From the NCBI GenBank assembly GCA_963835065.1, contig CAWIEK010000057.1:32001-96000 (forward strand): a DNA stretch of 64,000 nucleotides. Direction: 5' to 3'. A program made the position numbers and the translations under genes. How positions within the stretch are numbered: position 1 is the first letter of the stretch; each line of letters opens with the position of its first letter. The stretch comes from an uncultured Chthonomonadaceae bacterium. Its GTDB lineage: Bacteria; Armatimonadota; Chthonomonadetes; Chthonomonadales; Chthonomonadaceae. The notes below the pieces were generated by a model. That model worked only from the letters and a program-made list of their open reading frames with translations. It was not told the origin of the DNA and ran no database searches. This document shows, in pieces, positions 10,409-41,042 of this stretch.

Positions 10409-10707
10409 TTCACCACAGAGGCACAGAGGCACAGAGGGGTCACAGAGGAAAACAAGGAGAGATAGAAACCGCGAAACACACGAACTAAACGAAAAAAGGA
10501 CAAAAAGAACAGAAGAACATATAGAAAAGTATCCAAAACCTGTAGAGTAACTGATTCCCTTTGCTCCCTTTGCCTCTTTGCGGTTCTTTTTGTTTTTCTT
10601 TTTTCGTTTAGTTCGTGTGTTTCGCGGTTCCCTCTCCTTGTCTCCTCTTCTTCTCTTCTTTTCTTCCCCTCTGTAACCCCTCTATGTCTCTGTGTCTCTG
10701 TGGTGAA
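10409..10707. repeat. Family-A nested palindromic element
   Basis: ttcaccacagaggcacagag...aaccgcgaaacacacgaa...ttcgtgtgtttcgcggtt...ctctgtggtgaa. Confidence 0.92.
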
Positions 10708-12778: not shown

Positions 12779-13089
12779 TTTCACCACAGAGGCACAGAGA
12801 CACAGAGGGGTCACAGAGGGGAAGAAAAGAAGAGAGAGAAGAAGAGAAGAAAAGGAGATGGGGAACCGCGAAATACGCAAACCAAGACGAAAAAAGAAAA
12901 ACAAAAAGAACTGCAAAGAGGCAAAGGTGGCAAAGAGAAGTAGCGACTTTGCAGAGTTTTGCTTGTTCCTGGTTTTCCTCATGTCTTTTTGTTCTTTTTC
13001 GTTTATTTCGTGTGTTTCGCGGTTTCTATCTCTCCTCCTTTTCTTCTTTCTCTGTGAAACCTCTGTGTCTCTGTGCCTCTGTGGTGAAA
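12779..13089. repeat. Family-A nested palindromic element
   Basis: tttcaccacagaggcacagagacacagag...ctctgtgtctctgtgcctctgtggtgaaa, with inner aaccgcgaaa/tttcgcggtt and ctgcaaag/ctttgcag pairs. Confidence 0.92.
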
Positions 13090-13861: not shown

Positions 13862-14136
13862 AGGCATCGGTGTTCAGGTATTCGGTGTTCAGGTATTCGG
13901 ATTGCCGCTTTTCGATTTTCGATTGCCCTTCCTCTGTCTCCTCTTCTCCTTTTCTCCTTTTCTTCTCTTCTTCCCCTCGGCAAATATGCCTGAGACTCGC
14001 CGCTCCGGTTGCCGATAATCGGAGAGAAGGCCATTCACAGCAACATATCTACTCCCGCTCGCGCTTGTACCCGGCTCTTCCAATGCGAACTCCCAACGCA
14101 TTGTCCCAATGCCTAATGCCTAGTGCTAATGCCTAA
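13862..14136. repeat. Composite repeat region: GGTRTTC and TTTTCGA heptamers, a CT-rich family-A arm, and a GCCTAAT arm before flgB
   Basis: ggtgttcaggtattcggtgttcaggtattcgg; ttttcgattttcga; aatgcctaatgcctagtgctaatgcctaa. Confidence 0.75.
14011..14018 (+). promoter_or_regulatory. Possible sigma28 (FliA/SigD) -10 element
   Basis: Perfect GCCGATAA about 130 bp upstream of flgB; -35 match is poor. Confidence 0.4.
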
Positions 14137-14149
14137 CCCGGAGCCGGCC

Positions 14150-14536
14150 ATGTTCGACAAACTTTTCGGCGGCGATGTCTTCGTTGCCAGTACGCGCGCC
14201 CTTGACGCCTACGCCCTGCGCCATCAGACCATTTCCAACAACCTCGCCAACATCAACACGCCTGGCTACAAGCGGCAGGAAGTGCATTTTGAGGATCAGC
14301 TTGCGGGCGCATTGGCGGCCCGCAATGCCCCCGCTGCTGGCGCGTTAAATTCGGTTTCACAGGTCGCGCCCACCGTCGCCACGATTGGCAGCACGTCCCT
14401 GCGCGCCGACGGCAACAATGTAGACATGGAATCCGAAAACATTGATCTCGCCGTCAACACCCTGCGCTTTGAAACCCTGTCGCAGCAAGTCGGCGGCTAT
14501 TTCAGCGGCTTGAAGTCAGTAATCAATTCAAAGTAG
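14150..14536 (+). CDS. flgB: Flagellar basal-body rod protein FlgB
   Basis: ISNNLANINTPGYKRQEVHFE; RADGNNVDME. Confidence 0.95.
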   Translation: MFDKLFGGDVFVASTRALDAYALRHQTISNNLANINTPGYKRQEVHFEDQLAGALAARNAPAAGALNSVSQVAPTVATIGSTSLRADGNNVDMESENIDLAVNTLRFETLSQQVGGYFSGLKSVINSK

Positions 14537-14657
14537 TCAGTAGCGAGTAGTCAGTAGTCAGTAGACAATGTTTGTTCTCTGATAGCTTTGTATGTCAACA
14601 CAATCTTAGAGTAGAAGGGCATTTCTACTGACTACTGACTACTCGCTACTGACTACT
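14532..14657. repeat. Heptamer hairpin (AGTAGTC)n...(GACTACT)n
   Basis: Perfect 33-bp inverted arms spanning the flgB-flgC junction. Confidence 0.97.
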
Positions 14658-14658
14658 T

Positions 14659-15114
14659 ATGGAGTATTCCATGCCTCTCGGTTCTTCCATGCACATCAGC
14701 GCGTCGGGTTTGACGGCGGAACGCCTGCGCCTGGATGTCATCAGCAACAATATCGCCAACGTCAACACGCCCAACTTTCGGCGGCAGGAAGTGACCTTCG
14801 CGTCCCGCGCCGGGGGTGGCAGCAGTTTCGCTTCCCAACTGGCGGCTGCGCGCGCAGGCAGCCTGTCCGGGGAGGGAGCGGGCGAGGGCGTACAGGTGTC
14901 CGCCATACGCCCGGATATGGACCGCCCGTTCAAAGTAGTTCACGATCCCTCCAATCCCGCCGCCGACAAGGACGGCAACGTCAACATGCCTAATGTCGAA
15001 CCCATCATCGAAATGGTAGACATGATGGCCGCCACCCGCGCCTACGAAGGCGGCGTCTCCGCCATCACCGCCGCTAAACAAATGCAGCAACGCGCGCTCG
15101 ATATAGGGAAATAG
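14659..15114 (+). CDS. flgC: Flagellar basal-body rod protein FlgC (start may be 14671)
   Basis: SASGLTAERLRLDVISNNIAN; MPNVEPIIEMVDMMAATRAYE. Confidence 0.96.
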   Translation: MEYSMPLGSSMHISASGLTAERLRLDVISNNIANVNTPNFRRQEVTFASRAGGGSSFASQLAAARAGSLSGEGAGEGVQVSAIRPDMDRPFKVVHDPSNPAADKDGNVNMPNVEPIIEMVDMMAATRAYEGGVSAITAAKQMQQRALDIGK

Positions 15115-15216
15115 GCATCAGGCATTAGGCATCAGGCATTAGGAAAATTCTTCATACGCCAAATTTTCCTTCTAACGCCTTGCTCCTAATGCCTAATGCC
15201 TAATGCCTGATGCCTA
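15112..15216. repeat. Heptamer hairpin (TAGGCAT)n...(ATGCCTA)n
   Basis: 33-bp inverted arms with one mismatch, spanning the flgC-fliE junction. Confidence 0.97.
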
Positions 15217-15220
15217 AACC

Positions 15221-15574
15221 ATGAACATTACCGCCATAACCCCAATTACAACCATTCTCGCGCCGGAACGGAGTTTGAAATCCGACCCGGTTCCCGAAGC
15301 GATTTCGTCCGCGCCCGGCGCGTCGTTCCCGATGGAAGCCGGCAGCGCGCCGACCAAATCGTTTGGCGCAATGCTTTCGGACGCCATTGCCGGAGTGAAT
15401 CAGGCGCAGGTACACGCCGGCGATATGACCGCGCGCTTTGCGGCGGGCGAACCGATGGACGTGCATCAGGTCATGATCGCCTCCCAGGAAGCCAGCGTCG
15501 CCCTGAGCCTCGCCCTGCAAGTCCGCAACAAACTCGTGGACGGTTATACTGAAATCATGCATGTGAATGTTTAG
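15221..15574 (+). CDS. fliE: Flagellar hook-basal body protein FliE
   Basis: DVHQVMIASQEASVALSLALQVRNKLVDGYTEIM. Confidence 0.95.
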   Translation: MNITAITPITTILAPERSLKSDPVPEAISSAPGASFPMEAGSAPTKSFGAMLSDAIAGVNQAQVHAGDMTARFAAGEPMDVHQVMIASQEASVALSLALQVRNKLVDGYTEIMHVNV

Positions 15575-15576
15575 GA

Positions 15577-15700
15577 GGTAGTCAGTAGTCAGTAGTCAGT
15601 AGCCAGTAGAAATGCCTCTCTCCTCACAGATGCGCGGCGCAGAAACATCTTACAGGAAACGGTTCCTCTACTGACTACTGACTACTGACTACTGACTACT
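15577..15700. repeat. Heptamer hairpin (AGTAGTC)n...(GACTACT)n
   Basis: Inverted arms spanning the fliE-fliF junction; right arm ends just before the AAGGAG RBS. Confidence 0.97.
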
Positions 15701-15719
15701 TCCCCAAGGAGACTCGACG

Positions 15720-17448
15720 TTGCTAGACCGCGCACGAGAGTGGTGGGAAAAACTGGGGCGTGCCAACCAACTGGCCCTGGTGCTGACGACGGTGGGCGTA
15801 TTGATCGCGCTCATCGGCTTTGTCACCTGGGCGGGTACGCCGGACTATGTGCCCCTGTTTTCCAATTTGTCGGCGCAGGATGCCAACGCCATTGCCGAAA
15901 AGCTGAAGGAATCCAACGTGCCTTCCAAGCTGGCGCAGAGCGGCGCGACCATTGAAGTGCCCGCGCAGTTTGCCGATGAGCAGCGCATAAAGATGGTGGC
16001 GGCGGGACTGCCCGCCGCGTCCGCCAATGCCACGACGGGAATGAGCGACGCGCTGACGGGCCAGCACATGGGCGATACGTCGGCGATTGAAGACCTGCGG
16101 ATTCGCTCCGCGAAGGAAAACCAGGTCAGCAAAAGCCTGATGATGATGGACCCCATCGCCAACGCGGTGGTGCAGTCCGCCGCTTCCGACAATAATCCGC
16201 TGATGTTGAGCAATCACGAAACGTCGGCAGCCGTGCTTGTCACCACCAAGCCGGGACATTCGCTGACGGATGAAAACGTGCATGCCATTGTGCGGCTCAC
16301 GCAGATGTCGTTTACCGGATTACAGGAAAAGAACATCAGCGTGACTGATTCGCAGGGCAACGTGCTTTGGGATGGCAACCATGCGGGCGGCGTAGGCGGC
16401 GGTGAGGGCATAGATAAAGCGCGGCGCAAGCTGGAAACTGAGAAGCGCGCGGAAATTCAGAACGCCCTCAATATCGTCTTTGGCGCGCACAACAGCATTG
16501 CCACCGTCAGCATCGAACTGAATTCCGATAGGCGGCAGGAGCACCGCGTGGAAGTGCTGCCCGGCGCGGTCACGATGAAGGAAAACAATGAAACGCATCT
16601 GGAAGGCGCAGGCAAAATAACCAGCACGACGGCTGCGGGCGCGACGGCCAACGTCGGCGGGCCGCCTCCCGCCAATCCCGCGCCGGGCGGCGGGCCGGGA
16701 GTTCCCGGCTATGCGTCGGCGGCGGTACAGCGAGCCTAAAGGCATTTTCAACGAATCAAAGTCGATCACGACTTCGGAACCCGGCAAGACGGAAATCACC
16801 ACGGAAAGCGGGCCGGGCAAGATCGAGAAAATGAGCGTCAGTGTGCTTGTAGACACCAACAAGTACAAAGACCCCGCTGTGCTGGCCGACATCAAAGCTA
16901 AGATCAAGGAAATGGTTGCCGTCAGCATCGGTATCTCCCCCACCGAAGCCGCCAATGGCCGCATGGTATCGGTTGTAGATATGCCGTTCGACCATACGCA
17001 GGAGATGCAGGATCAGGCGGCGGGCGAGCAAGCGCGCCGCGCCGACATGCTCAAACAGCTTGCCGGCCTGCTGATTCCCTTCCTGATTATGGGCATGGCG
17101 CTGTTCCTGCTGGCCCGCGCCCTGCGCAGGTCCAACCCGGCTGCGTTCGCCAAAAATTCCCTCCTGCCCGCCGGGGCCGGCGGGGGCATGGGAGCCTTGC
17201 CGCCGGGTTCGTCCCTGATGCTGGATGGGAACAGCCTGCCGATGCCCGGCCAGATGGTGGGCAGCGCGGACATGATTGATGGCGAAGACGGCCCGCTCGC
17301 GCTCTCCCATGGCAGCAGCGCGCCCAAGAGCTTTGAAGTGATCGAAGAAACATTCGACGCCAACCTGGAAAGCATCCTGCACCTGACCCGCGCCAAGCCG
17401 GACATGGTCGCCATGCTGCTGAAGAGTTGGCTGAGTGAGGAACAGTGA
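15720..17448 (+). CDS. fliF: Flagellar M-ring protein FliF (frameshift near 16720-16735)
   Basis: N-terminal TM plus YVPLFSNLSAQDANAIAEKLKE; PGKIEKMSVSVLVD; second TM; PDMVAMLLKSWL; position in operon. Confidence 0.92.
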
Positions 17449-17450
17449 GG

Positions 17451-17566
17451 AAGTTGATAGTTGATAGTTGATAGTGGTCGGCGGGAAGGCGCTTTCCTTA
17501 GCCGCGTAATACGAGGAGGCATGGTTGAACAAGCCTTCTGAACTATCAACTATCAACTATCAACTT
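17451..17566. repeat. Heptamer hairpin (AGTTGAT)n...(ATCAACT)n
   Basis: 25-bp perfect inverted arms spanning the fliF-fliG junction. Confidence 0.97.
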
Positions 17567-17582
17567 TTCCGAAGGAGATGCC

Positions 17583-18608
17583 GTGAGACCCAGTCCCGCT
17601 ACGCAATTGAACAGTCGGCAGAAAGCGGCCATTTTGTTGGTCGCGCTTGGCCCGGAAGCATCGGCCAAGATATACAAGCACCTGCGCGAGGATGAAATCG
17701 AGAACATGACGCTGGAAGTGGCGCGCATGGGGAAGATCGCCCCGGAAGCGCGGCGGCAGGTTGTGCATGATTTCCATGAAATGTGCATCGCGCAGGAAGT
17801 AATTTCCGAGGGCGGCATAGATCAGGCGCGTAAGGCGCTGGAAGCCGCGTTCGGGGCGGAAAGAGCCAACGAAGTCGTGAACCGCGTCACGCAGGCGCTG
17901 CAAGTGCTGCCGTTCGACTTTATCAAAAAGACCGACCCGACGCAATTACTGTCCTTTATTCAGGACGAACACCCGCAAACGATTGCTTTGATTCTGGCGC
18001 ATCTGGATTCCAAGCAAGCGGCTGCCGTTGTGTCCGGGCTGCCACAGGAACTGCGGGCGGAAGTGGCGCGGCGCATCGCCATCATGGACAGAACTCCCCC
18101 GGAAGTGATCCGCGAAATCGAGCGGGTTTTGGAGCGCAAACTGTCGGGCGCAGTCGTGACGCAGGCGTTTACCGCTGCCGGCGGCGTGAAGGCGCTGGTG
18201 GAAGTGCTGAATTATGTAGACCGCACAACGGAAAAGACTATTCTGGAAAACCTGTCGGAAACCAGTCCCGAACTGGCCGACGAAGTGAAAAAACTGATGT
18301 TCGTGTTCGAGGACATCACGCTTCTGGACGACGGCTCCATTCAGAAGGTGCTGCGCGAAGTGGACAGCAAGGAACTGGGCCTGGCCTTGAAGGGCGTGGG
18401 CGAGGAAGTGCAGTCGCGCATCTTCAAGAACATGAGCGAACGGGCGGCCACCATGCTCAAGGAAGATATGGAGTTTATGGGGCCGGTTCGCCTGCGCAAT
18501 GTCGAAGAAGCGCAGCAGCGCATTGTCGGCGTAATCCGGCGTCTGGAAGAAAACGGCGAGATCGTCGTCGCGCGCGGCGGTGGCGGCGGCGATGAGATCA
18601 TTATCTGA
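17583..18608 (+). CDS. fliG: Flagellar motor switch protein FliG
   Basis: QKAAILLVALG, EHPQTIALIL, MFVFEDI, NMSERAA. Confidence 0.98.
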   Translation: MRPSPATQLNSRQKAAILLVALGPEASAKIYKHLREDEIENMTLEVARMGKIAPEARRQVVHDFHEMCIAQEVISEGGIDQARKALEAAFGAERANEVVNRVTQALQVLPFDFIKKTDPTQLLSFIQDEHPQTIALILAHLDSKQAAAVVSGLPQELRAEVARRIAIMDRTPPEVIREIERVLERKLSGAVVTQAFTAAGGVKALVEVLNYVDRTTEKTILENLSETSPELADEVKKLMFVFEDITLLDDGSIQKVLREVDSKELGLALKGVGEEVQSRIFKNMSERAATMLKEDMEFMGPVRLRNVEEAQQRIVGVIRRLEENGEIVVARGGGGGDEIII

Positions 18609-18767
18609 TTTTCGATTTTTGATTGCCGATTTTCGATTGATGCCTCATTGCCACTCGATTCGCGTGAGTACAACTTGAAAGTGTCCCATTTGGAGAAGCA
18701 GGAACAGTGCAGAAAATTCACAATCCACAAGCGGCAATCGAAAATCGAAAATCGAAAATCGAAAATC
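18607..18767. repeat. Heptamer hairpin (GATTTTC)n...(GAAAATC)n
   Basis: Inverted arms at the fliG-fliH junction; right arm lies inside the fliH ORF (IENRKSKIEN). Confidence 0.93.
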
Positions 18768-19615
18768 CCTTTGTGCCTTTAAGCGAGACCTGTCTGCCGC
18801 GTGTCGGGCAGGAAAACGCGACCGTTGAGCCGGTGAGTTGGTTTCGAACGCTTGCGCCCGAACTGCCCGGACTGGTCGCGCCTGCCGTCGCGTTGCCTCT
18901 GCCGGTGCAGCGCAATGGCGCGGTTCCCACGTTTGCGGCGTTTCGGGACATGGGCGAGATCGAGCGCGAGGAGCGGGAACGGCGCATGATGGGTACGCCG
19001 GAACCGCCCGAAATCGTGCAGATGCGCTATGAAGCGGAACAAACGGCGCAGGAACTTGTCGGGCATGCGTACATGCAGGCGCAGGCGATTGAGGATGAGG
19101 CGCGGCGGCAAGGCTATGCAGCAGGTTTCGCGGAGGGCGCGGCGGCAGGGCGCGCGGAAGCGGAACAGATCGCGCAACGGCAGGCTGAAGTGGATAAAGC
19201 CATCTGGCATGAAGACATTGCCGCGTTTATCGCGCATGTCGAGACCGAGCGGCAATTGGCCTGGAACGCGCTGGAACCACAGATTATCAGCATGGTTTTT
19301 GAACTGGCAAAGCACGTTATCAAGCAGGAAGTGGAAGTCAGCCGGGATGTGGCTTTGTCGGTAGTGCGTAACGCCCTGCGCCGGGTCGTGGAGGGGGGAA
19401 GCCTGCGTATCCGCGTCAACACCGAAGATTTGCAGACCATACGCGGCAGCCGCGAGGAACTGCTCACATTAGTAGACAACATCCGCCACGTCGAAATCAT
19501 CGAAGACCGGCGCGTAGGCGTGGGCGGCTGCATCGTGGAAACCGACGCCGGCAGCATTGACGCCCGCCTCGAAACCCAACTCGCCGAAGCCGCCAGCCTC
19601 CTCGAATTGAATTGA
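18707..19615 (+). CDS. fliH: Flagellar assembly protein FliH (start uncertain)
   Basis: AxxxGxxxG repeats ARRQGYAAGFAEG; GGCIVETDAGSIDARLETQL. Confidence 0.92.
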   Translation: MQKIHNPQAAIENRKSKIENPFVPLSETCLPRVGQENATVEPVSWFRTLAPELPGLVAPAVALPLPVQRNGAVPTFAAFRDMGEIEREERERRMMGTPEPPEIVQMRYEAEQTAQELVGHAYMQAQAIEDEARRQGYAAGFAEGAAAGRAEAEQIAQRQAEVDKAIWHEDIAAFIAHVETERQLAWNALEPQIISMVFELAKHVIKQEVEVSRDVALSVVRNALRRVVEGGSLRIRVNTEDLQTIRGSREELLTLVDNIRHVEIIEDRRVGVGGCIVETDAGSIDARLETQLAEAASLLELN

Positions 19616-24640: not shown

Positions 24641-24923
24641 AGGAAGAAAAGGAGAAAAGAAGAAAAGGAGAAAAGGAGAGGGAAACCGCGAAAAACGCGA
24701 AACAAACAAAAACAGAACAATTAAAGAAATAGACAGGATTAATGGGATTAGAAGGATTAAACAGGATTATGAACCGAGAAGAGAAGCCTGTTTGTTCTAA
24801 ATATGCGGCGGCAACTGCAAATTTGCCCCTGTTCTTTTCGTATTTTTTCGTTTATTTCGTGTGTTTCGCGGTTCCCCATCTCCTTTTCTCCTTTTCTTCT
24901 TTTCTTCTCTCTTCTTCTCTCCA
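24640..24923. repeat. Family-A palindromic element lacking the outermost arms
   Basis: AG-rich arm, aaccgcgaaa, (caggattaa)-like 9-mers, tttcgcggtt, CT-rich arm. Confidence 0.88.
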
Positions 24924-37888: not shown

Positions 37889-39809
37889 TCAGGCGGGAAC
37901 CGTATCCGCCCACTGTCGGCTCCGGTCTTCAATCTCTTTAATCGCGTCTTCTTTTACTTTCATTTCTTCGCTATGCTTCGCGGTTTCCGCCAGTGCTAAC
38001 AACTGCTTGATCGTGTCCCGCCGCGCCGGGTTGCTGCGAATCAAGTCCGAAAGTTTCAGTTGCTTCAAGCGCATACTCAGGCTTTCCAAACGCGCGTCCA
38101 GTTCGGGTGTTGGGTGTTGGGTGTTAGGTGTTGGGGGGGCAGGCAAGGATGAAGGATGAGGGATGAAGGATGAAGCCGCTCCTCCTGTTCCCTGTTCCCT
38201 GTTCCCTGTTCCCTGTGTTTCCTCTTCCTCCTCCGCCTGCCCCGTGTAGCTCCACAACACGCGGACGCGCTGCGCGGATTCGTCAATATCGCGGGCGGAG
38301 CGGCGGGCGTCGTAGCGGAGGGGCAGGATTTTATCCGTGCCTTCGATTCGGGCTTCCAGCGCCATCACCGCGTTTTCATCGTACACGAACAGCACGGACA
38401 GCGAACGCCGCGCGCCCGTTGTGGAAACGGGAATATCGTGGATGGTTTCTTCGCGCAGGCGGGTGGCGCGGGCATCGGTCATCAGGCTGTCGGACGTGGC
38501 GTAGCCCTCATATAAAGTGATAGTTAAGGTTTGCTGCGTGGGGGATTTCAGGGTCAGGTCGGAGCGCAGCTTGCGGAACGGCAGTTCGGCTCCCGGTGGG
38601 ATGAGCAGGCCGTAGCGCTCCTGATGCGTGTGCGGGTCCTCGTAGCTCAGGCCCAGGCCGTGACTGGCAACGTCCTTGAGTTCCAATCGCCGCCCGCTTT
38701 CTTCGCTTCCGAGCAGTCCCAACTGGTCGGCGGCCAGAATGGACGCGCCTTCCGCAACCGCCGTAAGCGGATCGAAGGACAGGCAGCGCGCGCCAAACCG
38801 GGCTTCCATCATTTCGCGCACGGCGGGGATTTTGCAGGTTCCGCCGACAAGCAGCACATGCCCGATGCTTTCGGGCGGCAGATTGCTTTTGGCGACGGCT
38901 TCGTCCAGGCAGGCGCGCGTGGCATCTAAGCAAGGGTTTGGAAATCTGCTCGAACACTTCCCGCGTAATGGTGGCGCGCAGGGAATAATCGCGCCCGTCT
39001 TTTTTGCCGACGTTACGCAGAAAGACGCGCGTGGTCGGGTCGGTAGACAATCGCCACTTGATTTGTTCGGCCTCGTTACGCAGAATGCCGTCCAGGTCGG
39101 GGGCGGGCGTAACGCCGGGTTCGATCTGCTGCCGCAGCCATTCGCGGACGCCATAATCGAAGTCAATGCCGCCCAATTTCGGGTTGCCATGCGTGGAATG
39201 GACGCGCAGCGCCTTTTTGGATTTGGCAAGGATGGTAATGTCCAGCGTACCGCCGCCGAAGTCGAACACGAGCAGGTTTTCCTCGGTTTCAGGGCGTTCG
39301 ATGGTGTAGGAAAGCGCGGCAGCCGTCGGCTCATTGACCAATCGGAGCGGGTTCAGGCCGACGATTTTCGCCGCCGCCAGCAATGCTTCCCGCGCCGCGC
39401 CGCCGAAATTGGCCGGAATGGACAAAACCACATCCTTAATCGGTTCGCCGATTTTAGCCTGCGCGTTGGTGACGATATGCTTCAAAATCAGCGCGGCCAC
39501 TTCTTCGGGCTTGTACGCCTGCCCGAACAGCATAAACGTCTTGTTCGGATCGCCCAATGACCGCTTCACTTCGCGGATCGTATCGGGCGACTCCAGCAAA
39601 TCCCACGCCCGCCAGCCAATCGTGATTTCCGGCGTACTGCCCGGCGCGTCATCCTTCCACGCGGCCACGACGGAGGGCGTCCACGGAGCCTGGTACTGAT
39701 CGCGGGTGTTCGGGTCTGACAGCACACTCGCCATGCCGTACTGGTAGCGCGCCACAAGCGACGTGCTGGTTCCAAAATCTATGCCGATGGCAAACGTCTG
39801 CTGCGCCAT
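37889..39809 (-). CDS. Atypical Hsp70 family protein (frameshift near 38928)
   Basis: GIDFGTSTS, NEPTAAAL, VFDFGGGTLD, LGGIDFD, LLVGGTCKIP, AVAEGA. Confidence 0.88.
38105..38215. repeat. In-frame heptamer arrays inside the Hsp70 gene
   Basis: Coding strand (CAGGGAA)4-(TCATCCY)4-(AACACCY)4 = QGTGNREQGT..SSFIPHPSSL..TPNTQHPTP. Confidence 0.95.
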
Positions 39810-39995: not shown

Positions 39996-41042
39996 TTATT
40001 CTACATGCGGTTTGCGGGCGATTTGTTCCAGTTCCATGGTCACATCGCCAAGCGCGGCTTCCAGGTCGGCGAGCAGGGGCGAGGAAGCGCGGGCAGCGGC
40101 TACGTCTTCCAGATCAATGACTGCGCGCAGTAAACATTCTTCGGTTTGATTGCCGATGACCTGCACGTTGCCCCAGGGGTCTATGACTTGCGAGTTTCCG
40201 CTGAACCCTTTGCCGCCCTCGAAACCGACCAGGCCGGAATACACGACCCACACATTATGCTCGTCGGCAATTCCGGGCAGCAGCACGTTCCAGCGCGCCA
40301 CGTTGCCCACATGCTGCCCGCCAAAATCGCGCCCCGGACTGGCGCTGATGATGTAAATCACCTGCGCCCCCTTTAATGCCGCCAGCATTGCCGTAACCGA
40401 GTGCCACACGTCCTCGCAAATCAGCACGGCAACGGTTCCAAACCGCGACGCAAACGCCCGCACCGTCCGCCCCCGCGACACAAACCGCTTCTCATCAAAC
40501 ACGCCATACGTCGGCAGGAAGAACTTGCGGTGAACGTGAGAAATCGCGGGTGTTGGGTGTTGGGTGTTGGGTATTGAGGATAATGATGAGTGCTGAGTGC
40601 TGAGTGATGAATGGGATTCTGATTTATCATTCATCATTCCGCGTTCAGCATTGTTCCCTTCTTCCTGACCCCTGGCCCCTGATCCCTGACCCCTTGTGAG
40701 CGTGGCATACAGTGCGCTGTTGAAATACTTGCCTTCGCCTAATTCGTAAAAGCCCAGGCAGATGTCGAGGATGGCGTCGGGGCGGGTGACGCGCTCGCGG
40801 TAAACGCGCAGCAAGTCGGCAAATAATTCTTCGCGCGTTTTGGCGATTTCGCGGACGCCGCCTTCCAGAAAATACCCGGACAGAACGGTTTCGGGCAGGA
40901 CAAGCACATCCGGGGCGGGGGCGTCGGCTTCCAACTGCGCGAACAGGTCGCCGATCCGGTTGAGATTGTACGCATAATCGCCCTTTTTCGGCTTAATTTG
41001 CGCTACGGCCACATTCACTTTCACGGTTGGTTCCCTCCTCAC
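39996..41042 (-). CDS. Nitrilase-superfamily carbon-nitrogen hydrolase (stand-alone NAD-synthetase glutaminase-like) with repeat-derived insert
   Basis: E-K-C triad: LPETVLSGY, HRKFFLPTYGVFDEKRF, ICEDVW. Confidence 0.88.
   Translation of the reverse strand: MRREPTVKVNVAVAQIKPKKGDYAYNLNRIGDLFAQLEADAPAPDVLVLPETVLSGYFLEGGVREIAKTREELFADLLRVYRERVTRPDAILDICLGFYELGEGKYFNSALYATLTRGQGSGARGQEEGNNAERGMMNDKSESHSSLSTQHSSLSSIPNTQHPTPAISHVHRKFFLPTYGVFDEKRFVSRGRTVRAFASRFGTVAVLICEDVWHSVTAMLAALKGAQVIYIISASPGRDFGGQHVGNVARWNVLLPGIADEHNVWVVYSGLVGFEGGKGFSGNSQVIDPWGNVQVIGNQTEECLLRAVIDLEDVAAARASSPLLADLEAALGDVTMELEQIARKPHVE
40548..40693. repeat. In-frame composite heptamer element inside the nitrilase gene
   Basis: Coding strand (GGTCAGG)4-(TGATGAA)4-(TCAKCAC)4-(AACACCC)4. 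Confidence 0.95.

Follow-up and report, generated by a model that had tools for sequence, protein, structure and literature searches.

Heptamer-array hairpins at the junctions of a flagellar operon in an uncultured Chthonomonadaceae bacterium: kept positions with differing content

The window, a stretch of 64,000 nucleotides from an uncultured Chthonomonadaceae bacterium, contains a flagellar operon on the + strand with flgB (14150..14536), flgC (14671..15114), fliE (15221..15574), fliF (15720..17448), fliG (17583..18608), and fliH (18707..19615, start codon uncertain), encoding FlgB, FlgC, FliE, FliF, FliG, and FliH. An apparent frameshift near 16724-16731 splits fliF into two ORFs; this is likely an assembly error, as it is absent from the compared contigs of other public runs. 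Stems of 25-37 bp follow the stops of flgB, flgC, fliE, fliF, and fliG, and their arms hold 3.4-4.7 heptamer units each (sequence reading, TRF, and inverted-repeat search). Hairpin 1 (AGTAGTC, flgB-C, 14531..14658) possesses 35-nt arms (14531-14565 and 14624-14658) that are 100% complementary by inverted-repeat search, contain one variant unit mirrored on both sides, and surround a 58-nt loop; the TAG stop of flgB lies within the 5' arm. Hairpin 2 (AGGCAT(T/C), flgC-fliE, 15112..15216; arms 15112-15144 and 15184-15216) shows 97% arm complementarity and a 39-nt loop, hairpin 3 (AGTAGTC, fliE-F, 15574..15703; arms 15574-15610 and 15667-15703) 95% and 56 nt, and hairpin 5 (GATTTTC, fliG-H, 18607..18767; arms 18607-18639 and 18735-18767) 91% and 95 nt, with its 3' arm falling in the fliH open frame if GTG at 18707 is the start. 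Hairpin 4 (AGTTGAT, fliF-G, 17451..17566; arms 17451-17475 and 17542-17566) has a loop of 66 nt. None of the five was assigned a strand and none carries a gene.

These words and places agree with the first-pass annotation of this DNA, which also had claimed that each operon junction is occupied. Because the next called gene past fliH is on the opposite strand, all five internal junctions are indeed filled. Its description of the spacers as unique did not hold, for the loops of hairpins 1 and 3 (flgB-C and fliE-F) belong to one ~57-nt core family and lie in opposite orientations. A lone 3'-type array of the word AATGCCT (14108..14136, no strand), lacking an inverted partner, is situated 13 nt 5' of the flgB start. 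The RNA-fold z values of the flagellar hairpins were -12.1, -11.0, -8.6, -7.0, and -4.3, equalled by 0 of 200 shuffles, and an RNA-family search returned miRNA models only, far below gathering score.

Period-7 arrays (median length 30 nt) numbered 2109 in the 8.0-Mb genome versus 1 in 4 Mb of order-5 Markov sequence. A downstream inverted partner was present for 600 of 2591 arrays, compared to 39 of 2591 at random places, which bears out the inverted pairing assumed at the outset. The arms recur on contigs of independent public runs (up to 18639 in X1 and up to 15609 in X3), so this assembly did not create them. The notion that long reads folding back at assembly made the arms is hardly credible: the assembly does have errors (apparent frameshifts in fliF and probably in rlmN within the window), but the arms in contigs of other runs, in the operons of 20 relatives with other words, and at more than 200 public loci have already refuted it.

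Genome-wide, 540 paired hairpins of ~120 bases apiece were collected automatically, a set from which hairpin 5 with its degenerate 5' array is missing. Their typical dimensions are narrow (arm 30-35 nt, loop 50-65 nt). With gene positions from a simple purpose-made gene caller, 419 of the 540 pairs sit in co-oriented gaps, and 414 of 4468 co-oriented junctions (9.3%), 55 of 795 convergent gaps, and 27 of 800 divergent gaps were filled; terminators were rejected, occupancy being lower in convergent than in co-oriented gaps. Runs of at least three filled junctions (11 versus 2.9 expected) occur in ribosomal, respiratory (NADH dehydrogenase), flagellar, and other operons. Flagellum-specific regulation was rejected given this 9.3% occupancy and the long runs elsewhere; the flagellar operon is simply one old core operon where elements pile up, and its location is not special.

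Placement relative to genes was anchored at one end. The stem began within -10..+12 nt of the stop codon in 291 of 393 cases, and the anchoring persisted in roomy gaps (78 of 128 versus 20.8 expected) and with stop-free words only (23 of 41 versus 7.8), whereas anchoring at the start codon was rejected (24 of 128 versus 23.6 expected). TAG may be a pre-existing target: it preceded 211 of 378 elements compared to 1582 of ~6100 genes, but at the partner genome's unfilled site it stood in 11 of 19 cases in one direction of comparison and in only 2 of 9 in the reverse direction. After folding, the median stop-to-start distance is 20 nt and 202 of 252 cases have an SD-like word clear of the stem, in keeping with the original suggestion that folding brings stop and ribosome-binding site together. 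Near-matched pairs were outnumbered by unmatched ones within ORFs (13 versus 89) and exceeded them outside ORFs (400 versus 55). The stems are symmetric with respect to strand: G-U numbered 108 versus 133 for A-C, and of 403 hairpins the sense-strand fold was more stable in 208 and the antisense fold in 194, so this test of the mRNA strand revealed neither a G-U excess nor a sense-strand advantage.

Each arm is composed of tandem direct words with the G-rich word on the 5' side, and this polarity is fixed: of 59 words, 0 were used on both sides, and neighbouring arrays were ordered 5'-type then 3'-type 665 times, as the same type 193 times, and back-to-back 9 times. Deviations in the left arm were repeated in the element's own right arm in 148 of 233 instances, compared to a mean of ~39 and a maximum of 54 with permuted same-word partners. 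Stems reached at least 5 nt into the non-periodic outer flank in 10% of cases with the own partner versus 3.9% otherwise. Arm words are species-specific; in this genome (G000), G001, and the congener G002, AGTAGTC matched 289, 4, and 2 times and AGGCATT 414, 0, and 5 times, respectively.

The loops form ~57-nt families present in either orientation. One such family comprises 62 aligned members with few indels and a median of 67% identity to the consensus, of which 29 run with the mRNA and 27 against it. The same core lies beside other arm words in 13 of 68 matches having a left arm and occurs in G002 with 8-mer arms; only 1 of 70 matches to the core profile was outside arms. Genome G023 possesses a separate core family at four flagellar junctions in both orientations, Pyrinomonadaceae have another, and the core profile gave nothing significant against Acidobacteria loops (best E 2.3). 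A structured core was rejected, with loops folding barely better than shuffles (mean z -0.46, n = 371) and showing no covariation, as was a coding remnant, the conservation being without codon-phase pattern (0.70/0.63/0.64). Base conservation in the core was 0.71 for A, 0.68 for T, 0.62 for C, and 0.60 for G; diversity-generating retroelement (DGR)-type mutagenesis was rejected for want of an adenine bias here, and a second analysis gave the same result. Long identical runs were shared by 95 of 1891 core pairs versus 33 of 1891 in column shuffles. Among nine near-identical locus pairs, the differing sites were 20/617 in cores, 7/600 in arms, and 13/10580 in flanks, although a single pair accounts for 14 of the 20 core differences and each pair may consist of two assemblies built from similar data, making assembly error possible; for locus L307, whose core has the 14 differences, the loci fetched contained no donor copy.

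Comparison with relatives showed junction positions that are kept while their content differs, a turnover that is what this work adds. At 260 orthologous junctions of G000 and G002 (mean 83% amino acid identity), 47 were filled in both species, 21 and 9 in one only, and 183 in neither, for an odds ratio of 45. A word was common to both species at only 4 of the 47 co-filled junctions, loop scores showed no gain at orthologous (13.0) over non-orthologous sites (13.2; n = 33), and the word-to-word correspondence was weak (22 concordant pairs versus 10-11, p 0.003-0.005). The site of hairpin 2 is empty in G002 and has other letters in the X1 and X3 contigs; in a contig 94-98% identical in flgC/fliE, the flgC-fliE junction holds 98 other letters. 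Empty junctions, which the first-pass annotation had proposed to look for, are found in many relatives, in which the same operon junctions are 3-60 nt long and stemless. Target-site duplication was checked at nine filled/short pairs and none was established; the arms overlap TAG stops, and the empties may be losses. A nested-stem age test yielded 0 usable pairs. The 236 collection loci include no close relative of G000, so the strain-level view of its elements is limited to the contigs of other runs.

Full-length versions of the elements carry genes. All three four-helix-bundle (PF05635/TIGR02436) genes of this genome lie inside periodic inverted arms, as do 20 of 22 near-full-length PF05635 loci across the order (enclosing-arm score at least 17, versus at most 10 for controls). 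GxxExxY genes also are carried, and so two of the cargo families proposed earlier were recovered; the other, DUF559, was flanked by a different palindrome rather than heptamer arms at the one locus viewed. The four-helix cassettes of G002 and G023 use the arm words of their own flagellar junctions. Hairpins occur together with the absence of a PF05635 match in G001, G003 (79% complete), and G015, and G005 has a PF05635 gene, no flagellar hairpins, and a flank that is laid out differently. Among genes enclosed on both sides none was transposase-like. The PF05635/TIGR02436 ORF within a long stem (three of three genes) resembles ORF-bearing 23S rRNA intervening sequences, which are excised by RNase III; unlike those, all three genes here are located between protein genes and none in an rRNA gene, and most elements are gene-free. 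Similarity of the four-helix protein to Avd of diversity-generating retroelements was weak (27-32 bits against a family cut-off of 80), and adenine-specific variation was absent. The inverted doublet, spacer hairpin, and high extragenic copy number of REPINs are all present, as are the terminal inverted repeats around a conserved-length interior of MITEs. REP ends are short palindromes with a GTAG or CGTC tag; here such ends were not found, GTAG being confined to some arm words, nor was a cognate RAYT with the same flanking repeats, since the two best of four PF01797 (Y1) matches, those viewed, both had unrelated palindromes flanking them.

To our knowledge, bacterial heptamer repeats have no accepted explanation of origin and role. 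In most bacterial genomes surveyed, no other long simple repeats are as abundant as heptamers (Mrazek 2007, summarised in PMC4679880). The earlier statement that no such system has been described was too strong: paired heptamer arrays are already in print, unexplained, with convergent pairs in Xanthomonas (PMC4692102) and Geobacter (PMC2700814) given without mechanism in the portions available. The elements share with that paired heptamer simple-repeat class the tandem 7-nt units, the co-oriented intergenic location, and convergent inverted pairs with a spacer. Xanthomonas and Nostoc arrays consist of approximately four 7-nt units, are intergenic between co-oriented genes and at most 50 bp from stops, and in Xanthomonas form 70-75 convergent inverted pairs per genome with a G-rich word (Rehm et al. 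2015, PMC4692102), resembling ours in unit count, placement, pairing, and word. As far as the available text goes, those systems use one word, are read as G-quadruplex formers, and mostly keep their sites in two species (PMC4692102), whereas the present elements use dozens of words, mostly unable to form G-tracts, have cores in common, enclose genes in some copies, and show replacement of content. In Geobacter metallireducens, 7- or 8-mers repeated 3-5 times in tandem are likewise similar, forming pairs on opposite strands that are separated by a spacer of variable length and lie both in and between genes; they were catalogued as "global regulator binding sites" of classes 1-4 plus heptanucleotide elements and read as regulator sites, with mobility, polarity, core, and cargo absent from the available part of the analysis (Aklujkar et al. 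2009, PMC2700814). REPINs with RAYT resemble the present elements in that two inverted ends flanking a spacer fold into a hairpin of ~70-120 nt, that a genome has hundreds of extragenic copies in several flavours, that insertion occurs into copies already present, and that repeats surround a small gene, but their ends are short palindromes and the flanked gene encodes an HUH transposase (Bertels and Rainey 2011, PMC3116915), unlike the tandem direct words and the four-helix bundle or PD-(D/E)xK protein genes here. The TAACTGA repeats of Beggiatoaceae match in having 2-6 heptamer units, a location at gene boundaries including ribosomal operons, and a patchy distribution over phyla; in contrast, nearly all are unpaired and 5' of starts, and the source, as available, gives them without mechanism (MacGregor 2015, PMC4679880). 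The literature covered, with subscription journals mostly outside it, held neither a link of heptamer arms to the four-helix protein nor content replacement; material supplementary to PMC2700814 may be relevant here.

On balance, we consider it probable that the elements are non-autonomous, REPIN-like mobile DNA, likely re-inserting at occupied junctions and replacing the elements there, and we infer a mobilising factor. Just past the stop, each element comprises a G-rich arm of tandem words, a core of ~55 bases, and a reverse-complement arm; its spread would be a DNA-level process with the extruded hairpin as substrate. Occupied sites would be preferred, the newcomer entering between the old arms, which then would decay or be deleted. 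Arm-to-arm copying by template switching, rather than RNA selection, would maintain complementarity, and elements would survive where the folded stem spaces stop and ribosome-binding site by ~20 nt, matched pairs being purged from coding sequence. The trans-acting factor probably comes from small genes inside the same arms, with the TIGR02436 four-helix bundle as candidate for 7/8-mers and the GxxExxY PD-(D/E)xK nuclease for 8/9-mers. This last is the weakest step; no enzyme activity is known for the four-helix protein, and its mobiliser role is putative. Several points count against the proposal. Hairpins without a PF05635 match occur in G001, G003, and G015, and G005 has the gene but lacks flagellar hairpins; sites now empty may have lost an element; a fixed minority of permissive or hairpin-selected junctions would likewise produce co-occupancy; stop anchoring implies some tie to translation or mRNA selection; and whole replacement does not predict that words of G000 and G002 correspond even weakly. 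The mobile-element branch of the original interpretation is supported by empty orthologous junctions, dispersed loop families, gene-carrying versions, and the stop-to-start spacing left after folding, whereas tuning of subunit stoichiometry finds no support in sequence tests that saw neither a G-U excess nor a sense advantage and found empty junctions in the same operon of relatives.

It is unlikely that the hairpins are instead host-selected mRNA elements, any member of which would supply a post-stop stem wanted at certain junctions for RNase III cutting, 3' protection, or ribosome slowing. The stop anchoring, the filling of the same junctions by two species, and the excess of runs fit such selection, and REPs at most 15 nt from a stop, reported to slow ribosomes, provide a precedent in the available text of PMC12306157; the strand symmetry, the core without covariation, the stemless junctions in the same operon of many relatives, and the elements in convergent and divergent gaps speak against it. 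Quite unlikely, too, is an origin without any dedicated mobiliser, by which polymerase slippage, which according to the summary in PMC4679880 was put forward for heptamers by Mrazek 2007, grows arrays, template switching makes the partner, ordinary recombination and gene conversion homogenise copies, and genes hitch-hike. The mirrored arm variants, stem extension into the outer flank, and identical core runs are as expected from these processes, which leave unexplained the polarity fixed in 59 of 59 words, the tight size ranges of arm and loop, the hundreds of copies of few species-specific words, and the enclosure of 20 of 22 four-helix loci. Spread through RNA, with the stem cut from mRNA and reverse-transcribed with help from an Avd-like four-helix protein while cores are rewritten, appears very improbable: the genome has two reverse transcriptase genes, core divergence is star-like, near-identical pairs differ most in their cores, and some Avd similarity exists, but that score is far under the cut-off, adenine bias is absent, core orientation is independent of transcription, and most core differences come from one pair, with assembly error a possible source of the differences between pair members.

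For the puzzle of the heptamer repeats, the polarity, stop anchoring, mirroring, family cores, same-site new content, and two enclosed gene families provide testable predictions and candidate proteins. A more specific version of the favoured reading, which we offer tentatively, is that the four-helix-bundle and GxxExxY proteins constitute a widespread, hitherto undescribed cassette-exchange machine that recognises G-rich-first post-stop hairpins and exchanges what they contain, whether or not a gene is among it. If so, each species would rewrite, in a 7-9-base vocabulary of its own, the hundreds of junctions it inherited; bacterial heptamer repeats would then have their missing origin in cassette exchange, and TIGR02436 a first function. 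At a single junction, the four-helix genes of different genomes are just 69-70% identical, with flanks that are 95-97% identical.

The first-pass annotation had placed heptamer stems at five flagellar junctions, and sequence reading, TRF and an inverted-repeat search bore out their positions and words. The stems began inside or at most 3 nt from the stop codons of flgB, flgC, fliE, fliF and fliG, with arms of 25-37 bp (3.4-4.7 heptamer units each, 91-100% complementary) and loops of 39-95 nt. Each hairpin folded better than 200 of 200 shuffles; the one at fliG-fliH, when folded with part of one arm missing, gave a z of only -2.2. An assembly artefact, to which we assign a negligible probability, was ruled out because the arms were present on contigs of other public runs. 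Extra bases at window:16724-16731 split fliF and were without counterpart in contigs of three independent public runs (X1, X3 and X4), so this is likely a frameshift from assembly error. Another frameshift is probable in the rlmN-like gene at window:24937-26041, whose RlmN_N and Radical_SAM parts fell in separate, overlapping ORFs.

The five-hairpin observation is real and is not specific to the flagellum. The 8.0-Mb genome (G000) contained 2109 period-7, 347 period-8 and 135 period-9 arrays versus 39 of period 6, and a 4-Mb Markov control sequence yielded 1, 1 and 0 arrays of periods 7, 8 and 9. Inverted pairing was in excess genome-wide, with a downstream partner for 600 of 2591 arrays compared to 39 at random places. 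The sizes of the 540 pairs at most 300 nt apart peaked at 30-35 nt for the arm, 50-65 for the loop and 110-125 in total. Using our own hexamer gene caller (an imperfect tool; 6992 genes), we counted filled junctions at 414 of the 4468 sites between co-oriented genes, at 55 of the 795 between convergent genes and at 27 of the 800 between divergent ones. Runs of at least three filled junctions numbered 11 versus 2.9 expected. They fell in flagellar and pheST operons as well as in those for ribosomal proteins and NADH dehydrogenase (operons named from the beginnings of the predicted proteins), so the flagellar operon behaves like other core operons.

The elements obeyed rules of polarity and position. 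None of the 59 distinct words used as 5' arm also served as 3' arm, and all 59 had at least as much G as C. Neighboring arrays were ordered 5'-type then 3'-type in 665 cases, of the same type in 193 and back-to-back in 9, indicating that elements nest instead of abutting. Stems started at -10 to +12 nt from the upstream stop in 291 of 393 cases. In gaps with more than 40 free nt, 78 of 128 stems were anchored to the stop (20.8 expected), and the same 128 stems showed no pull toward the downstream start codon (24 versus 23.6 expected). Anchoring also held for stop-free words (23 of 41 versus 7.8 expected), and of 252 cases, 202 had an SD-like word that the stem did not cover. Among 437 elements of 18 words, left arms deviated from their word 233 times; 148 of these deviations were mirrored in the element's own right arm, versus a mean of 39 and a maximum of 54 when right arms were exchanged between elements sharing a word (200 permutations).

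The loops, which had been described as unique, instead formed families. Of the 540 loops, 371 were 35-90 nt long and free of inner arrays; among these, 563 pairs scored at least 32 compared to 3 in shuffles, and one cluster had 111 members. The AGTAGTC family possessed an asymmetric core of ∼57 nt, to which the flgB-flgC and fliE-fliF loops belong in opposite directions. Core orientation was independent of transcription (29 versus 27 in co-oriented gaps). Alignment of 62 of its 78 members (the rest being duplicates, off-length or weak) gave a median identity of 67% to the consensus and a pairwise identity of 52%, with few indels, no covariation and no adenine bias. A core-only profile matched 70 places at E ≤1, 62 of them between two arms; 55 had AGTAGTC arms (by construction) and 13 had other words. 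The same profile matched elements with 8-mer arms in the relative G002, and in another relative, G023, four of the flagellar junctions contained a core particular to that genome. Pyrinomonadaceae combined the same AGTAGTC arms, of a polarity imposed by the search pattern, with a different core.

Among 26 relatives with a FliG match, we read by eye the flagellar regions of 20. Periodic hairpins occupied 4 of 5 junctions in G002, 5 in G023, 4 in G003 and 2 each in G001 and G015, with words nearly always other than those of G000; in most other relatives the junctions were short and empty, as the first-pass annotation had proposed looking for. Some of the same junctions in G021, G024, G017 and G013 (loci L011, L007, L006 and L014) held unrelated REP-like and CCCTC-type palindromes. 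At fliE-fliF of G001 (L005, G001:C2:5036785-5036903), the hairpin shared both junction and AGTAGTC word with the window, and was the sole AGTAGTC hairpin of that genome by exact pattern. Comparison with 2.0 of the 7.5 Mb of G002 provided 260 orthologous co-oriented junctions, of which 47 were filled in both genomes, 21 and 9 in one only and 183 in neither (OR 45, p 4e-26); with both gaps at least 90 nt, the counts were 36, 8, 6 and 56. Sharing is understated because several junctions scored as filled in one genome hold degenerate arrays. The word was the same in 4 of the 47, and orthologous loops were no more similar than non-orthologous ones. A weak word-to-word correspondence between these genomes persisted (p 0.003-0.017), and the two top words of G000 were nearly absent from its congeners. 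Among run contigs recruited at 85% likeness, and therefore including other organisms, one from X1 had flgC and fliE 94-98% identical yet 98 different letters at their junction, and the flgB-flgC junction was short and empty in contigs from X1 and X4. Sites that differed between more distant Acidobacteria locus pairs made up 31% of the core, 8.5% of the arms and 18% of the flanks. For near-identical pairs the counts were 20 of 617, 7 of 600 and 13 of 10,580, respectively, to which assembly differences may have contributed; 14 of the 20 core differences came from the 65-nt core of one pair (L232 and L307, flanks identical over 583 nt), reflecting either strain-level rewriting or an assembly difference.

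Small genes were enclosed by such arms, in line with the suggestion that gene-carrying versions might exist. All three four-helix (PF05635/TIGR02436) genes of G000 lay inside arms, as did 20 of 22 selected near-full-length PF05635 loci (score at least 17; control at most 10). G002 and G023 each had one four-helix cassette bearing its own genome's flagellar hairpin word. At one junction in two genomes, the flanking proteins were 95-97% identical and the four-helix genes only 69-70%, which suggests that cassettes are swapped too. The three PF13366 (GxxExxY) genes of G000 had 8/9-mer arms by eye, and the motif was visible in their products. Elements with two or three nested stems, built from 8/9-mer words that recur in a set order (window:6866-7222, 10409-10707, 12779-13089 and 24650-24908), had arms resembling those flanking all three genes. 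Hairpins without a PF05635 match in G001, G003 and G015, and the reverse in G005, count against strict dependence. The four-helix gene of G005 (L048) was flanked by local hairpins with a C-rich word adjoining the start, unlike other loci. Non-heptamer palindromes, different for each gene, enclosed one DUF559 gene and two genes for Y1 transposases (G000:C49:487382-487699, C42:76532-76870 and C51:103107-103445), which are parallel small-gene-in-palindrome systems. The genome also encodes two reverse transcriptases (G000:C49:681660-682277 and C50:52695-53327).

The earlier statement that no such system had been described goes too far, since convergent heptamer pairs are on record for Xanthomonas (PMC4692102) and Geobacter (PMC2700814). 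Unpaired heptamers are reported from Beggiatoaceae (PMC4679880), and PMC12306157 places REPs near stops. The elements are a variant of this known yet unexplained paired-heptamer class; by the membership tests applied they are not REPINs, rRNA-IVS or DGRs, and they work like REPINs, their functional analogue (PMC3116915). The literature searched gave no account of in-place replacement or of the four-helix link to heptamer arms.

We lean toward REPIN-like, non-autonomous units that would spread by a DNA-level process, preferring junctions already occupied; arm-to-arm copying (template switching) would maintain the match between arms, and copies would be tolerated where folding leaves ∼20 nt between stop and start; cargo genes may have a role. 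A cassette-exchange machine is possible, if doubtful. Selected mRNA elements would account for stop anchoring and co-occupancy, but we consider them unlikely given that no strand signature at all was found: there was no G-U excess on the mRNA strand (108 G-U versus 133 A-C mismatches), and the more stable fold was sense in 208 and antisense in 194 among 403. Slippage and conversion without a mobilizer appear rather improbable, and an RNA/RT route highly so.

Arm matching was mostly present outside ORFs (400 near-matched pairs and 55 with at least three differences, plus 11 and 16) and mostly absent inside them (13 near-matched, 89 with at least three differences, 18 pairing arrays of unequal period). 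At window:28984-29248, 38105-38216 and 40548-40694, heptamer arrays without matching partners were stacked in frame within a 703-aa ORF, an Hsp70 and a carbon-nitrogen hydrolase. They add peptides to these proteins, GTGNREQ and PTPNTQH among them; on the coding strand, 5'-type words preceded 3'-type words. The junction at window:29796-29940 was crowded with words that did not match one another, first three or four of the 5' type and then two or three of the 3' type, and looks like the remains of repeated occupation.
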